From Alphaproteobacteria bacterium (GTDB taxonomy: Bacteria > Pseudomonadota > Alphaproteobacteria > UBA828), in contig CBDCCI010000002.1 of assembly GCA_965214705.1 (NCBI GenBank), positions 256,001 through 320,000 of the forward strand: a stretch of DNA of 64,000 nucleotides, written 5' to 3'. How positions within the stretch are numbered: position 1 is the stretch's first letter; each line of letters begins with the position of its first letter. Below, piece after piece: positions 9,001 to 30,000 of this stretch. Made by a program: the position numbers.

Positions 9001-12000
9001 CGGGCCCCAGGTCGACCGGCGCGAGGAGGTGATCGAGCCGGACACGATCATGTGCCCCTGCGGCTGCGGCGAGATGACGAAGATCGGCGAGGACCGCAGC
9101 GAGCGGCTGGACTATGAGCCGGCGAAGTTCACCGTCATCGAGACCGTGCGCCCCCGCTACGCCTGCAACAAGTGCAAGGGCGGCGGGGTGGTGCAGGCGT
9201 CGGCGCCCGCCGCTCTGGTCGAGGGCGGCCTTCCCACCGAGGCTCTTCTGGCGCAGGTGCTGATCGCGAAGTACGGCGATCATTGCCCGCTCTACCGTCA
9301 GTCGCAGATTTACGAGCGCTCGGGGATCGAGGTTCACCGTGCGACGCTGGCGACCTGGGTGGGGCAGGCGTCGTTTCACCTGCGCCCCGTGGTCGCTTGC
9401 CTGAAGGATGAGCTGAAGAAGTCGGATCACCTGGGTCTGGACGAGACCACGATCCGCGTTCTCGACCCGGGCCGGGGCAAGACGAAGACGGGCTACATGT
9501 GGACCCTTGTGCGCGACGAGCGCCACTGGAGCGGCGCCGACCCGCCGGGCGTTGTCTATCGCTATGAGCCCGGTCGCGGCGGCAAGTATGGCGCCAGGCT
9601 CTTGAAGGGCTTTTCGGGGACGGTGCAGCTCGACGCCTACTCGGGCCACAACATCCTGGCGCGGCCGGACCGGCCCGGCGGCCCCGTGACGCGGGCTCTG
9701 TGCTGGGCGCACGTCAGGCGCAAGCTGAAAGAGGTGTGAACCTTATAGTCGCTATTTGCGGTACCATTGCGCTGACGTAGGGTTGCAGTCTTCTCCTGTA
9801 TCGTTGCTATAATACAACGACTTAGGGTCCTTGTCAAGGGCGGATTGGGCCGGATCGAATAACACAGATGTGGATCGTGTGTCGTTGAGGAGTTGCATTT
9901 GGGGATGTCAATATGGAATCAGGCTTGTGACATCGGTGTGGTCCAGTTGGCGCGGAAGCTCGAATCGGTGAGCAACATAGAAACGATATGACATATCCCG
10001 GTCATGAGAACTATCGTAGGCATATTCGTGAATCAACTTCCGGATGCAGGATCCACTGTGTCGCAACCGCTGCAAGCCCTTTCGTGCGGATGGCGGCGAT
10101 GAGGGAGGATGCCAGCGGACGCCGCCAGCGCGCGGTGATGAGACCGATGCGGAGTGGCAACGGATCGGCCGGGCAGCTGCGGCGAGCGGCATGGATCGCG
10201 CTTCGTGATCCATCGCGCGCTGGACCGGGACTCTCTGGGGCCGGAGGTTCTGCGCCGGGCGGTGCGCGAGATGCTGGTGCTGTCCAGGCTGGAGAGGGCG
10301 GCTGCGCGAGACCGGCGCCGGAGAAGACTGGGCAGACGCCTGTGACGCGGTGGACGAATGGATCGACCGGGAGGGCATGCTGGACCGGCTGACCAATCCC
10401 GGCGCGGCGAACCGCTGGAAGGCGGTGGGTCCGGCTGAGGAGGACGGGTAGTGACGGAGGAGGCGGGGCGGCCCACCGCCTCCGCCATGCCGACGGATAT
10501 CGTGCCGGGAGCGCAGCCGAGGTCGAGAAGGCGTATGTCGCGCTTGAGGTGCGGCAGCAGATGAGCGGCGTTCACAGCCGCGTTCCTGCGTTCGAGCACT
10601 TTCTGGAATTCGGGGCCGTGACCTCCATTGTGCAGGTGAGCCTCGACGCGTCCGGAGTCTCGTTGGGGCCCATCGACAGCTCCCTGTCTGAGTTGCCTCG
10701 GCATTGCTGCGCGCCACCGAATGCACCGAACCGCATCCCGCGGTTGCATGCACCGGCGCGCAGCCGGCGTCGCCAAGCGCTCCCATGTACCCGGCTGCCT
10801 ATAGATGCCGACAGATTCTGCGATCGCAGACGCCTTGGATGGACGAACAAGAAAATGAATTCCGCCTGCATCATGCGACCGGATTTGACGCATCTCTCTG
10901 CCAGACTGCCTCCGCATCACATATGGAGACAGTCATGCCGACCGCCTATGAACGCCATCTCATAGCATCTTATCTCTCCAACGCTGCGGGGCGGCTTCAC
11001 CACCGCGACCGGGAAGCGTCCGCCCTGGCGGAATGGATCGCCGACCGCGACAACCGTTCTGCGTACGACCGAAGGAAGGACTTGTACTCTCGCCTTGTTC
11101 GTCTGGACCTCGAACTTGAGGAGCCCGTATCCGCACGACAGTTGCGCTGCTTGAAACAGGTCCTGCGCGATGAGTGCGCGGCCACGAAGGGAACGAAGCT
11201 CGACCGGACCGGGCAACGCCTCCGCCGCCTTGGGGAGGCCACGGGCCTCGAGGCCATCGACGTCGACATCCTGGAGCTGCTGCTGCGCTACCGGACGCAG
11301 CCGGTGATCGAGTCACTGGTCGACGACATCTTCCTCCACGCCAACAGGCGGGGGATACGTCTCAACGTCAGGGGCACGGCCGTTTCCACCCTTCTCGGCG
11401 TATCCGCCAGCGCCGTTCAGCGCCGTCTCACGACCGGGGCGCCGCTGGTGAGCTCGGGGCTTGTCGCCATCGACAGCGACGGCGACGTGACGGCCGTCGA
11501 CCGGCTGCGGCGGCTGGCCACGGTTCCCGACAGCGCCGGCCTCGACGTGAACCGCCTGCTGCTCGATGCCGCGCCCCCGAGCGAGCTTGAGTGGTCCGAC
11601 TTCGATCACATCGCCGAGGGGCGCGATCATATCGAGCGGCTGATCCGGGGCGCACTGCACGCCGGAGCGGCGGGCGTGAACGTGCTCCTCTACGGCCCGC
11701 CGGGAACCGGCAAGACGGAGTTTTGCAAGGTGCTGTCCGGGCGGCTCGGCGTAACCCTCCACAGCGTCGGAGAAGCCGACGACGACGGCGACGAGCCCAG
11801 CCGCCGCGAGCGGCTGCAGGAGCTTCGGCTCGCCCAGCGACTTCTCAGGCGCAACCGCGGCTCGCTGCTGCTGTTCGACGAGATGGAGGACCTGCTGTCC
11901 GACCACGCCGCCCGCGGACTCTTCCTTTTCGGGCAGCCGCTCTTCGCCGGCGCCCGCGACGGAAGCTCCAAGGTGTACATGCACAGGCTGCTCGAACGGG

Positions 12001-27000: not shown

Positions 27001-30000
27001 GCGATCACGACAAGGTTCGCGTGGCAGGGCAGCGCTCGATGGCTTCTACGTCGTCCGCACCAGCCTGGCCGCGTGCGCGCCTGCGTCCTGCTGTACATGC
27101 TCGCCTGCCACGTCGAATGGCACATGCGCCGAAAGCGCGCTCCCATCCTGTTCGACGAGGACAACCCGGCCGGCGCCGAAGCCGCGCACGCCTCCATCGT
27201 CGCTCCGGCAAAGCCCTCGCCTTCGGCCCGTCGCAAGGCCGCCGGCAAGCGCACGCCGGACGGCGCGCCGGTGCATGCCTTTGGCAATGAACCGTCGCGT
27301 GATTCGTCACCGCGGCGGACAAGCGTCCTGTACCATGATGTCTGCGATGGCCTGCCCGACCCTCTCGGCCGCTTCCTCGATGTCGCGGTCTCCGAGATGA
27401 GCATAGCGCAGCGTCATGCTTACGTCGGAATGCCCAAGCATGCGCGAGACGACCGGGATCGGTACGCCGTTCATCACCGCGTGGCTGGCGTGCGTGTGGC
27501 GGAGATCGTGAAGGCGAACGTCCTCGATGCCCGCCTCGCGCCGGGCGCGATTCCAGAACGCAAGGTTGTGGCTGCGGGGGCGGGCGGGATCTCGTGGGGA
27601 CGGAAAGACGAAGGGGCTTGCGCCGCGCGGCCGGCGTTCGAGAATACGACGGGCATGGGTATTGAGGGGAACGATCCTGGGCCCGGTCTTGCCGTCGGCG
27701 AGGACCAGCCTGTCGCGATCGACTTCCGACCAGCGCAGCCCGACGATCTCGCTCCTGCGGCATCCGGTGAGCAGCAGGAGCCGGATGATGTCCGCCTGCT
27801 CGCGGCTGCTGTTGCGGGTCTGCCTGTCCAGGATCCGATGGAGCCTGGCGATCTCGTCGCGGGACAGAAAGCGCGTGAGCACCCGTCTCGGGTTCCTTTT
27901 CACGGCCCGCGCGGGGTTCGTTTCAAGGTGGCCGCGGGCGATTGCGAAGTTGACGATCTGCGAGAGAAGATCGAGCGCGCGATTGGCATTGCCGGGCGCG
28001 ATCCGGCTGAACCGGTCGAACCACCGCGTGATGTGCGCCGGGGTGATGCGGTCGAGCGGCTTCGAGCCGAAGGCGGGCAGGAGCTGGCGGTCGAGCAGGG
28101 ACTGGACGCCCTTTCTCGTGGACGGCTTGTATCCGTCGAAGTGGGCCTCCTTCCACGCGCCCTCGACGAAGTCGCGGAACAGCGGCGCAGCAGGCTTGGG
28201 CGCTCCGGTCGCTTCCAAGTCTGCCTTGCGCGCGTGACATTCCCGGCGGACCTCCGCCACGGACTTCAGCGACACCGGGCCGAGAGTGACCCGCCTCGAC
28301 CGGCCGCCGGTGTTCCCCAGCAGGACATAGCTCTTCCCGCCGGTGGGCCGGACCCGGACCCCGAGGCCGACAAGATGATTATCCCAGACCGCGTACTCCC
28401 GCTCGCGGGGGCGGAGGCTGGCGATGGCGCGGTCGGTGAGCCGCATCCGTTCCCTGCCGGCCATGGATCAACTCTCCACCAGCGCGTCGCCGACGGTCTC
28501 GGCCGCCTCGCGCACCATGGCGTCGGCAAGGTGGGTATATTTGAGCGTGGTTTCCGCGTTGCGGTGTCCGAGCAGCCGGCCGATGGCGAGGACGGAGACG
28601 TTTTCCTTCAAGGCGAGGGTCGCGTTGGTATGGCGGAGATCGTGGAGCCGGACGTCGCGAAGACCGGCCTCGGCGCGAACCTCGTACCAGAACCGGTTCA
28701 GCCAGCCCGTGCTGCGCGGCCCTGCGGCCTGCGGCGCCGGGAAGACCCAGCGGCCCTTTCGTTCGAGCGTATTGAGCACCTTGCGGGCCGGCGCGGACAG
28801 CCAGACGGTTCTGGGTCCGGTCTTGGAATCGCGCAGGAACAGATGCCCCTCGCGGTAGTCGGCCCAGCGGAGCGTCAGGATCTCGCTCTTGCGGCATCCG
28901 GTCAGCAGAAGAAGGCGGACGATCGCAGCCCGCTCCGGGCAGCGCTCCTCGTGGGCCGAGAGCACCGCCGAGAGGCGTCGGATTTCCTCGTCGGACAGGA
29001 AGCGTTCCCGCCCCTTGCGGCGATATCTGCGGATGCCCCGGCATGGGTTGGAGCCTTCGGGCCTGAGCCCCATCGCCTCGGCCTCGCGCATGATGACGGA
29101 GAGCACCGGCATCGAGCGGTCGGCGGCGACCGGGGTGGCGCGGAGCGCGGCGAACCAGCGCCGGACGTCCTTGCCGTCGATGCCGGCGATCTGCCGTCCC
29201 GAGAAATGGGGCAGGATCTGGTTCTTGAGGTAGCAGCGGTTGACCTCGAGGGTTCCGGTCTTCCAGAGGCGCCGGTGACGCTCGAACACGGTTTCGGCGA
29301 CGGCCTCGAAGAGGGTCTCGGCGGGATCGCGGGGGGCGTCCCCGCCCCGCCGGATGGCGGCGAGCGTCTCGCGTGCGCGCGAGCGCGCATTCTCCACGCT
29401 CATGGTGCCGGCGTCGCCTATGATCTTCCAGACCCGCTCGCCGCAGTGCTGGCAGTGGACGAAGAAGCGCTTGCGGCCCGAGGGCAGGACACGGACGCCG
29501 AAGCCCCTGAGCTTGCCGTCGCGGACGTCGCGTGCGGCGTTGCGGGGCTTCAGCGCGCTCACGCGGGCGTCGGTGAGGGCGGGTCTGGTCATTCGCGGTC
29601 TCCCGGTTGCGGTTGCAGCCGGGGAACAGGGGGTTGCCCCATGCGTCCGGATGCAACAAGATGAGGGAGAGAAAACAACCCTGCGTCAGTCAGTTAGCAC
29701 CGAAGGTGCGCAAAGAGGTGTACGACTCGAGCGCCTCGCCGATCGCGCTGGCTGGCCTGAAGCGGATCGCGACGCTCTATGCGATCGAGGAGAAGATCCG
29801 GGGCGAGCCGCCGGCGACGCGTCAGGCGATTCGCTGGGAGGAGTCGGCGCCGATCGTGAACGCCTTCGGTGTCTGGCTCGACGAACAGCGCTCGCGGGTG
29901 TCGGCGCGCTCGCGTCTCGGCGAGAAGCTCACCTATATCGCCAACCAGTGGGACGGGCTGCTGGAGTTCCTGCACGACGGCCGCGTCGAGATCGACTCGA

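Follow-up and report, generated by a model that had tools for sequence, protein, structure and literature searches.

A family of integrative elements with paired tyrosine recombinases, probably moved by conservative recombination at ACACC-N5 sites

The stretch of alphaproteobacterial DNA that we analyzed (the window, 64,000 nucleotides) contains a 19,994-bp insertion, E1, which occupies positions 9728–29721, reads on the minus strand and interrupts an IS66 transposase gene (Table 1). When both flanks of E1 were matched to 47 uninterrupted IS66 paralogs they overlapped by exactly 10 bp, and ACACCTCTTT, the 10 bp found at both E1 ends, is present in a single copy in these paralogs. On the IS66 DDE model of Pfam, the break falls between positions 162 and 163. 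The empty sites of E1 are IS66 copies elsewhere in the same genome. The first-pass annotation had described identical decamers at the two ends, and we indeed read AAAGAGGTGT (the reverse complement of ACACCTCTTT) at both; the stretch at window 324–333 that it gave as the empty site is, however, not the decamer.

Table 1. Features of E1 and of the gene that it interrupts (positions in the window)
Feature	Position	Strand	Basis or remark
Interrupted IS66-family transposase gene (target), 5' part	8594..9739	+	Pfam DDE_Tnp_IS66 positions 2-162
attR decamer ACACC+TCTTT (minus-strand reading)	9728..9737	-	Once in 47 empty IS66 paralogs
Conserved right-end module; GACACA-N11-TGTGT inverted repeat and TGCAAC motifs	9733..9907	-	176-position nhmmer model ending ..GGTTC/ACACC (slash, terminus)
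Sigma-70-like promoter TTGACA-17-TATTAT, directed outward across right terminus	9809..9837	-	11/12 consensus matches
Ribbon-helix-helix (RHH; NikA-like) gene remnant, frameshifted, directed inward from right end	10090..10445	+	tblastn with E9 gene
Cargo: 771-aa AAA ATPase	10704-13019	+	Within cargo block 10704..14120
Cargo: WYL/WCX regulator	13107-14120	+	
Cargo: IS remnant (DDE_Tnp_1; DDE_Tnp_1_assoc fused to DruA-like stretch)	14387..16200	-	
Cargo: 912-aa PD-(D/E)XK nuclease and 1139-aa UvrD-type helicase-nuclease, AddB/AddA-like pair	17181..23323	+	
Cargo: UPF0236-type transposase-like ORF	23430..24986	+	
Low-GC stretch after UPF0236-type ORF; ORFs of no known family	25000-27300		
intB, 385-aa P4-type tyrosine integrase	27307..28464	-	
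intA, 374-aa P4-type tyrosine integrase	28468..29592	-	
Left arm, 119 bp	29593..29711	-	GC and palindrome GCACC-ttc-GGTGC (29697-29709)
attL decamer ACACC+TCTTT	29712..29721	-	
Interrupted IS66-family transposase gene (target), 3' part	29722..30239	+	Pfam DDE_Tnp_IS66 positions 163-284

The left arm carries the palindrome reported earlier for the left end and a subterminal repeat, CTGACGCAGGGTTG; CCCGGCTGCAAC precedes the intA ribosome-binding site, and no promoter-like site was found in this arm. The two integrase genes are 3 bp apart, outside the range of 7–34 bp given before. We found no tRNA within or beside E1, and E1 thus lacks the tRNA or tmRNA integration that is usual, if not strictly defining, for P4-type islands. 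With the corresponding gene of E9, another member of the family, as a query, tblastn recovered the RHH remnant of E1 as fragments that change frame and include an in-frame stop, and E1, its RHH gene being broken, may no longer be mobile.

In this metagenome-style assembly, whose 8.7% marker contamination means that copies per cell may be below the count, an nhmmer left-end model found 40 left ends, and ACACC is present at 35. The exact motif ACACC-N5-RC-GCACC-N3-GGTGC gave 29 matches versus 0 for the reversed control. The family and its null control hold, with these figures in place of the at least 36 left ends and the 36 exact matches first reported. Tandem intA-intB pairs are likewise present, although we count 24 at full length rather than 27 intact; the palindrome, previously assigned to 26 of 27 pairs, lies in exact form 117–120 bp upstream of intA in 21 of the 24, and the remaining three carry GGTTC palindrome variants. 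Comparison of 21 left modules showed that colinear similarity stops at a median of 2373 bp (quartiles 2360–2379) and extends beyond 2600 bp in only 1 of 210 pairs, with no gene conserved after intB. No transposase is constant across the family. No identical copies were observed and the nearest left modules are 98.6% alike, so that very recent movement inside the genome is not evident.

At the other end, a right-end model gave 18 matches, 15 of which are full length, and ACACC follows in 14 of these 15 (17 of 18 right ends in the first-pass annotation). An intact or partial RHH homolog accompanies 19 of 20 right ends, the family gene lying ∼355 bp from the right terminus, so that more than the ∼160 bp proposed earlier is constant at the right. 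In 12 of 14 right ends, TTGACN-17-TANNNT keeps one position, 71 bp from the terminus. Judged from sequence, the constant parts of the IntA-IntB elements are a left module of ∼2.37 kb (left arm, intA, intB) and a right module comprised of the RHH gene and a 176-bp right arm with a putative outward promoter. The target genes of the family include those of an IS66 transposase, an IS4-like element, a PKS, a T4CP and an integrase. As in the earlier view, the sites are unrelated and share ACACC, and comparison with empty sites yields exact junctions.

The products of intA and intB each contain Arm-DNA-bind_3 and Phage_integrase domains and are 39% identical to each other. Phage_integrase scored 76.3 bits for IntA and 95.5 bits for IntB (Pfam cut-off 27.1), and the N-terminal arm DNA-binding domain PF13356 scored 47.2 and 32.0 bits, respectively (cut-off 27). 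That both proteins keep the catalytic R-K-HxxR-H-Y set was borne out: 23 IntA sequences all have R234, K257, H317, R320, H343 and Y352, and 22 IntB sequences all have R236, K259, H319, R322, H345 and Y354. Full pairs are free of internal stops in 23 of 24 cases, with median dN/dS values of 0.34 (intA) and 0.33 (intB). Among 56 related loci, intB directly follows intA in 54. In pairs from Shewanella and Vibrio plasmids, IntA is joined by the first genes (support 100/99) and IntB by the second (100/98), and these plasmid pairs are gene-for-gene orthologous to ours. The IntA/IntB pairing is ancient and predates the split of our pairs from those of Shewanella and Vibrio.

The first-pass annotation held that ACACC plus five variable bases usually flank both ends. 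The flanking ACACC stands, but the five bases (N5) are not free. Across 14 pairs of ends, 59 of 70 N5 positions are the same at both, compared with a permutation mean of 24.3 and a maximum of 46 in 100,000 permutations, and mismatches at N5 positions 1–5 number 4, 4, 2, 0 and 1. Half of the resolved elements (8/16) have perfect 10-bp repeats and the other 8 have imperfect ones. N5 is similar between closely related elements; in seven elements whose left modules are mostly 97–98.6% identical to those of their nearest relatives, it reads ATGCG, TGACG, GCGCG, GTGCG, GGACG, AGACG and GCTCG. In another species, one genome has GCCTA at both ends (G020), while at the same locus another has GCCTA at attL and CCCTA at attR (G017). 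N5 thus follows the lineage of the element.

Four mismatched pairs were compared with an empty site, two of them by way of paralogs of only 71–84% identity. The target N5 is found at attL in C3_1751265 (paralogs 100% and 99% identical) and in C1_1856370; in C1_1355116 it is attR that has the target version, with ACACA instead of ACACC, and attR probably has the target version in C2_610217 too. A heteroduplex overlap predicts that either end may bear the version of the target. Since the repeats are often imperfect while the ends agree far above chance, the data fit an overlap region with tolerated heterology, and our reading is that the decamer probably represents crossover identity (core plus overlap) rather than duplication of free bases.

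Empty sites were also observed outside this genome. As reported earlier, 11 of 20 same-genus genomes have the orthologous empty site of E9, and we verified the 10-bp overlap base by base in three; for E8, E10 and the nested E11/E12 pair, the right ends were confirmed as well. The family had been placed in 9 of 12 same-genus genomes, and here its exact motif occurs in 13 of 20. One environmental contig (run X1) joins positions 3014 and 16930 of the E9 region, skipping 13,915 bp with 11 letters shared, and so represents an empty E9 site; it may derive from a related strain that never held the element and is not proof of excision. No circular form or attP junction was detected in this genome, the junction pattern had no match in metagenome contigs, and no joint leading back at the element ends appeared in the assembled contigs. 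None of the 76 metagenomic occurrences of the left-end motif (75 contigs) has a right end on the same contig.

A TrwC-type relaxase gene lies beside the right end, inside the element, in 7 of 16 resolved elements. E9 encodes a 1592-aa TrwC-domain protein along with three NikA-like genes, and E9 and six other resolved members combine the integration module, the relaxase and RHH accessory genes without mating-pair genes. E1 and other intact-ended members have no relaxase, and no oriT was located. Because many members carry a TrwC relaxase, 'integrative mobilizable element' is probably the better description of them.

Taken together, the family of E1 consists of integrative elements, many of which look mobilizable, and we consider it likely that they move by conservative tyrosine recombination. 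We propose that a circular attP (..AGTGC-ACACC-N5-GCGCACC..) would recombine with loosely defined chromosomal sites, the target supplying ACACC followed by five bases similar to the current N5 of the element. The overlap region, and with it the cleavage positions, would comprise part of ACACC plus N5, ∼6–8 bp, in which outer bases would need to be homologous and middle mismatches would be tolerated. Insertion with a mismatch would leave a heteroduplex; its resolution by replication would make the flanking repeats imperfect and let the N5 of the element drift to new targets. IntA and IntB, both with complete catalytic sets, probably cooperate on an asymmetric core like XerC and XerD; that both integrases drive the element, as a heteromer, is what we infer. 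Upon circularization the right-end promoter would face intA-intB, ∼200 bp downstream, and the RHH protein may also have a role. Members bearing TrwC may be transferable by resident conjugation machinery.

Might one integrase alone integrate and excise the element, the other being redundant, regulatory, or devoted to multimer resolution or a second att specificity? A single P4-type integrase is generally known to be enough for most genomic islands, a left end at C2:419080 is followed by intA alone, and the two genes have been reshuffled between elements, the nearest relative of the E1 IntA being that of C1_384k and of the E1 IntB that of C1_1572k. Nevertheless, we regard this as unlikely given the retention of every catalytic residue in both proteins, the similar purifying selection on both genes, their adjacency in nearly all related loci and a pairing older than the split from the Shewanella and Vibrio pairs. 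A strand-biased copy-out/copy-in process such as has been proposed for SE and Tn554, in which one strand is circularized, the donor stays, the new attL has the target bases and the new attR has the donor attL bases, would account for the high copy number. It would also account for attR N5s that equal the attL N5 of the closest relative (TGACG in C1_1456150 versus C3_512989; ACCGG in C2_610217 versus C1_3381557). Of the four empty-site comparisons, however, the two attL cases fit and the two attR cases do not, leaving no consistent bias. The similarity between ends is far above that of unrelated sites, which this process does not require, and the 3-bp intA-intB gap and the lack of anything conserved after intB leave no tfp or srap/tnpC counterpart. 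We judge it distinctly improbable.

The perfect repeats of eight elements, together with empty sites that have one copy, might also indicate a true target-site duplication of 10 bp, arising when staggered cuts at ACACC-N5 are filled by repair synthesis. This is very improbable, as the other eight repeats are imperfect even though related elements diverge by only 1.4–3%, and the odd copy fits neither mutational decay nor the target. Moreover, ACACC abuts the conserved right terminus in nearly all full-length ends as expected of a part of attP, tyrosine recombinases are generally known to generate no duplications, and a family-wide transposase is lacking. Insertion by the TrwC-type relaxase at nic-like sites, rather than by the integrases, is scarcely credible: TrwC adjoins the right end in many members and can reportedly integrate DNA at oriT-like sequences, but intact-ended members such as E1 do without it, and the integrase pair stands at a fixed distance, 117–120 bp, from the junction in every full copy.

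Beyond conservative recombination by the integrases, a wider picture is conceivable that we hold only tentatively. The elements could constitute an old, unnamed class of tyrosine-recombinase transposons in Alpha- and Gammaproteobacteria, in which two arm-binding integrases, both obligatory, would act on an asymmetric core. Micro-homology to a 5-bp overlap that rewrites itself would be the main determinant of the target and would let the element travel between sites. The promoter would meet intA-intB, and so turn on their expression, only in the circle, and the right end would double as oriT, so that members without a relaxase, such as E1, could be mobilized in trans by relaxase-bearing siblings.

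Paired-integrase elements are a little-studied route for the spread of cargo genes, and we class the IntA-IntB elements as a variant within the multi-recombinase integrative elements (GInt, SE, Tn554). Like GInts they have a tripartite layout, in which the recombinase operon occupies one end, the cargo varies and the far end is short and conserved. Experiments on GInts (PMC5385486) show staggered cuts of 6 nt, resolution of heteroduplexes and a tenfold gain in integration if attI and attB match; in GInts too, flanking direct repeats are imperfect, and heteroduplex resolution rewrites the att overlap and may thereby shift target preference. In contrast to ginABCD, which has three integrase-like genes and a small fourth, our elements have two P4-type genes with arm-binding domains and, similarity ending at ∼2373 bp, neither a third integrase-like gene nor a small helix-loop-helix gene after the pair; they also use numerous insertion sites within a genome, where GInts use a single one. 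SEs (intA-tfp-intB-srap, PMC10214605) likewise have two tyrosine recombinases, also named IntA and IntB, at the left end, short variable junction bases and some members without transfer genes, but they are found only in Gammaproteobacteria (PMC10214605), whereas our elements are alphaproteobacterial, lack tfp and srap and have integrases of similar size. Tn554 (tnpA, tnpB, tnpC) also requires two tyrosine recombinases and carries junction bases from site to site; we set it apart by its description rather than by TnpA/TnpB sequences, as our elements have no conserved tnpC counterpart, occur in another taxon and use many targets versus one preferred att554.

CTnDOT, NBU1 and Tn916 share the short conserved target motif followed by five variable overlap bases and the tolerance of heterology, the CTnDOT overlap combining a conserved dinucleotide with a variable coupling sequence of 5 bp (PMC2817482). 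They differ in using one integrase and unrelated coupling sequences, whereas N5 copies here largely agree. RIT elements have three recombinase genes between terminal inverted repeats; our elements have two such genes and lack long inverted repeats at their ends. XerC/XerD are similarly two paralogous, catalytically complete tyrosine recombinases on a core that is presumably asymmetric in both systems, but they lack arm-binding domains and serve chromosome segregation, and the comparison presumes the putative heteromer. Integrative mobilizable elements of the MOBF (TrwC) type resemble E9 and its six relaxase-bearing relatives in joining an integration module with relaxase and RHH genes; E1 has no relaxase, and the paired-integrase module and the loose target distinguish the family described here.

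The assembly that holds the window (7.92 Mb in three contigs, C1 to C3; 67% GC) carries many integrative elements with tandem tyrosine integrase genes, intA and intB, inserted at a decamer of ACACC plus five variable bases (N5) that stands at their left (attL) and right (attR) ends. A tblastn search at 50% identity or more returned 45 IntA-like and 39 IntB-like matches, and 24 full-length tandem pairs are present. The exact left-end motif ACACC-N5-RC-GCACC-N3-GGTGC occurs 29 times, as against 0 for the reversed control, and always lies 117–120 bp upstream of intA; a left-arm profile finds 40 left ends, with ACACC in place at 35. 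The right-end profile matches 18 copies. Fifteen are full length, and in 14 of them ACACC directly follows the conserved terminus (..AGTGC). Two more types of right terminus were observed (..TTTGTC/ACACC and ..AGGACC/ACACC). Among 21 full left modules (left arm, intA and intB) similarity ends at a median of 2373 bp, just past intB, even between modules that are 97–98% identical. This abrupt end indicates that the left module is a sharply bounded cassette joined to changing cargo.

The palindrome at the left end is unlikely to be a hairpin, as its variants GGTTC and GTACC are uncompensated and its spacer is 3 or 4 bp; we read it as a pair of putative protein-binding half-sites. A subterminal inverted repeat (CTGACG.AGGGTTG) lies at the same positions in four elements, and as its single-pair scores scarcely exceed those of shuffles (23 in the exemplar element E1, shuffle maximum 24) we regard it as a weak signal. 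A ribbon-helix-helix (RHH, NikA-like) gene, absent from the constant parts listed in the first-pass annotation, accompanies 19 of 20 right ends. It points inward and starts 353–357 bp from the right terminus, or 389–439 bp in the variant end types. The copy in E1 is broken by frameshifts (window about 10090-10445); a 292-aa ORF at 9908-10786 on the minus strand proved to be a wrong-frame artefact, the conserved signal there being that of the RHH gene on the opposite strand.

Features of the exemplar E1 and of the related element E9
Feature	Coordinates	Strand	Length	Remarks
E1	window 9728-29721	minus	19,994 bp	exemplar element
E1 decamers	window 9728-9737 and 29712-29721			AAAGAGGTGT; reads ACACCTCTTT on the element's strand (minus)
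Palindrome GCACC-ttc-GGTGC	window 29697-29709			in left arm of E1
E1 left arm	inward from window 29721		119 bp	non-coding, before intA
intA of E1	window 28468-29592	minus	374 aa	
intB of E1	window 27307-28464	minus	385 aa	3 bp after intA
E9	C3:909016-922940			interrupts modular polyketide synthase gene

IntA and IntB of E1 are 39% identical, and each has arm DNA-binding, SAM-like/central and Phage_integrase catalytic domains. No NCBIfam model reached its cut-off for either protein, and a PDB sequence search returned only remote catalytic-domain matches, e.g. XerA at 1e-12. E1 splits an IS66-family transposase gene exactly between Pfam model positions 162 and 163. Comparison with 47 uninterrupted IS66 paralogs shows a flank overlap of exactly 10 bp and hence a single decamer in the empty site; the first-pass annotation had placed this empty site at window 324-333, which is a different sequence. 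Rfam and tRNA scans of E1 gave no match. The genome holds ∼47-50 copies of the IS66-family element (the window copy spans 8096-9739 and 29722-30239), at least 8 with ACACCTCTTT and ∼37 with ATACCTCTTT; of all these copies a single one is occupied by E1. At the start of the window a TrwB-type coupling protein gene (28-1728, plus strand) is followed by a TrwC-like relaxase fragment (about 1730-2620), so the region upstream of E1 contains a portion of a conjugative or mobilizable element. In a paralog of the coupling protein gene, the family member at C1:1856370 has inserted at the Walker A codons. Two ORFs (346 aa and 413 aa) are present twice in the window, at 31047-33335 and 38791-41079, ∼7.7 kb apart, and are probably another repeated mobile element.

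Sixteen elements of 4.2 to 58 kb were paired end to end. Eight have perfect decamers, including E1, E9, E8, E10 and the nested pair E11/E12, in which E11 lies within one of E12's integrase genes; the matched decamers reported earlier for E8, E10 and E11/E12 are all borne out. In the other eight the decamers are imperfect. Two doubtful proximity pairings are not among the sixteen and were left out of the counts of N5: C3 460893/420103, which has no ACACC after its right end, and C3 2722255/2760688, the terminus of which is unclear. In the 14 pairs tested the two copies of N5 agree at 59 of 70 positions (permuted mean 24.3, maximum 46 in 100,000 trials), with 4, 4, 2, 0 and 1 mismatches at N5 positions 1 to 5 and one extra mismatch at the last C of ACACC. 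N5 also tracks lineage. The N5 sequences ATGCG, TGACG, GCGCG, GTGCG, GGACG, AGACG and GCTCG belong to seven elements whose left modules mostly share 97–98.6% identity with those of their closest relatives, and other close element pairs have TTAAC, ACGTC or GACAA in common. For mismatched elements with an available empty paralog, the target's version can be located by comparison. In C3_1751265, for which empty paralogs are 100% and 99% identical, it lies at attL, as it probably does in C1_1856370. In C1_1355116 it lies at attR, the target's ACACA included, and attR is probably also its location in C2_610217.

These observations bear on how the decamer comes to flank the elements. Duplication of the target site does not fit the imperfect decamers, an N5 that follows lineage or the presence of the target's version at either end. 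A strict footprint rule like that of Tn554 and SE is not upheld either, with two cases for it and two against. Similar but imperfect decamers, together with a target version at either end, instead fit classical tyrosine recombination. In such an exchange the overlap region would run from the end of ACACC through N5, with homology required at its outer bases and mismatches tolerated in the middle, and replication would resolve the resulting heteroduplex in either direction. The attP core that would form in a circle, GTGCAC-ACC-N5-GCGCAC, may represent an imperfect inverted pair of half-sites around ∼8 bp.

Related genomes offer further junctions. The E9 locus is uninterrupted in 11 of 20 same-genus genomes, and in the three empty-site genomes that were read base by base the E9 flanks overlap by the same 10 bp, which upholds the first-pass claim of an orthologous empty site with a 10-bp overlap. 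At this locus (C3:906001-926000, positions 15-3063 and 16832-19609) the polyketide synthase gene (KR, ACP / KS-AT) is cut by E9 and also by a 2.16-kb IS, while 11 genomes of the genus have an intact version. Two other genomes, G020 and G017, share an orthologous insertion site, where they harbour elements of ∼56 and ∼48 kb whose two ends have N5 of GCCTA/GCCTA and GCCTA/CCCTA, respectively. The exact left-end motif was found in 13 of 20 other genomes of the genus and in none of 20 genomes sampled outside it; among 400 other genomes sampled evenly across the class, one has it. This last genome belongs to another family and has 8 motif copies, with IntB-like matches immediately downstream of several IntA homologs. 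Related loci, in 54 of 56 of which intB directly follows intA, occur in assemblies titled Alphaproteobacteria bacterium or Defluviicoccus sp., and two titled Gammaproteobacteria retain the motif. Two contigs with IntA 75–77% identical come from assemblies titled Dehalococcoidia or Chloroflexota, titles that likely reflect mis-binning rather than true hosts; the genome studied here itself has 8.7% marker contamination.

No circle or attP junction was found in the genome, and the junction pattern AGTGCACACC-N7-GCACC-N3-GGTGCTAA had 0 matches in metagenome contigs. The left-end motif occurs 76 times in 75 metagenome contigs, none of which has a right end as well; where at least 2.5 kb of sequence follows the motif (39 occurrences), intA plus intB are present in 25. 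Comparison of E9 and its flanks with assembled contigs from public runs revealed no go-back joint at the element ends; other joints with ∼20-letter sides were seen. One such contig runs precisely from one E9 flank into the other, leaving out 13,915 bp and with 11 letters shared, and may represent a strain that never had E9. The right arm of E1 contains a sigma-70-like promoter (11 of 12 consensus matches, 9837 to 9809, minus strand) directed outward, and 12 of 14 right ends have TTGACN-17-TANNNT at this same distance of 71 bp from their terminus; this constant part, too, is absent from the first-pass annotation. No promoter-like site was found upstream of intA inside the element. In a circle the right-end promoter would face intA from ∼200 bp away and could thus be junction-activated.

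Movement may require both integrases, and several facts speak for this. The catalytic residues are all invariant among 23 IntA and 22 IntB sequences, and median dN/dS across 24 pairs is 0.34 for intA and 0.33 for intB, with a stop in one intB. In a tree with Shewanella and Vibrio plasmid pairs, which are annotated just as site-specific integrases and have upstream sequences different from those of the family, the first genes group with IntA (100/99) and the second with IntB (100/98), indicating that the pair was inherited as a pair across classes. An IntA-IntB complex score given in the first-pass annotation was not reproduced; full-length chains with their own alignments scored 0.28 (mark 0.32) in a run without controls, a prediction that counts neither way on binding.

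A second, unrelated family (F2) of tandem P4-type integrase pairs is present at window 47452-50037 (plus strand) and at ∼15 more loci in the genome (e.g. C3:223363-227941 and C2:538288-540689). Its two genes are ∼55% identical to each other and 35–41% to IntA and IntB, form an independent duplication among single integrases in the tree, and have left ends with repeated TACGC motifs instead of ACACC/GCACC. Three F2 pairs (C1:1983115, C1:3009803 and C3:225576) start directly downstream of integrase genes that are cut short. Two of the truncated genes belong to the IntA-IntB family, namely an intA that ends at residue 259 and an intB that ends at residue 261; the remaining one (C3:224607-225392) shares only 35% identity with IntA. 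As all three truncations fall at codons of the conserved D-x-K-T-G motif, F2 seems to target integrase genes, including those of the IntA-IntB family.

As cargo, E1 carries genes for an AAA ATPase and a WYL regulator, a nuclease-helicase pair that resembles AddB/AddA, IS remnants, and ORFs that belong to no known family. PADLOC gave domain-level matches only (IetA-like ATPase, WYL and GajB-like helicase) and called no system, and no relaxase was found in E1. E9 encodes a 1592-aa TrwC-type relaxase and three NikA-like genes, and TrwC-like genes lie within 7 of the 16 resolved elements; from gene content, these members look like integrative mobilizable elements. A 4.16-kb mini-element nested in E8 (C1:3377399-3381557; decamers ACACCACCGG and ACACCATCGC) is reduced to intA and intB, a gene of the Exo_endo_phos family, a short RHH gene and the right end, and could serve as a natural minimal element. 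Most family insertions are located in other mobile DNA. A 2.16-kb IS, which encodes a 651-aa DDE_Tnp_1 transposase and is present at window 41184-43139 (minus strand) and in at least 36 identical copies, holds the site ACACCGACAA occupied by E8, C1:655660 and C3:2067562. A loose target and relaxase-bearing members help explain how cargo, here including nuclease/helicase pairs, spreads within and between these genomes.

For specialists in mobile DNA the interest lies mainly in natural copies that expose the exchange rule and in a simple two-gene model. The natural record is unusually rich, with dozens of copies in one genome, exact junctions, available empty sites and mismatched repeats that show which bases get exchanged, and it yields testable predictions: an overlap of ∼6–8 bp, homology at its outer bases, and inheritance of the target's bases by either end. 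Orthology with the unnamed Shewanella and Vibrio plasmid pairs suggests a widely distributed module that has escaped notice and that annotation pipelines record simply as 'site-specific integrase', and we found no description of the family in the open-access literature on tandem or paired integrases. Elements with several tyrosine recombinases (GInt, SE, Tn554 and RIT) are few and their mechanisms unsettled; the IntA-IntB family adds a simple two-gene version. It is not a bipartite module (BIM), since that consists of one recombinase and an unrelated protein, and it lacks the gene sets that define GInt, SE and RIT. It nevertheless appears to work like GInt, for which experiments (PMC5385486) describe the same logic of overlap exchange, and its target choice resembles that of CTnDOT, which has a conserved dinucleotide and a 5-bp coupling sequence (PMC2817482).
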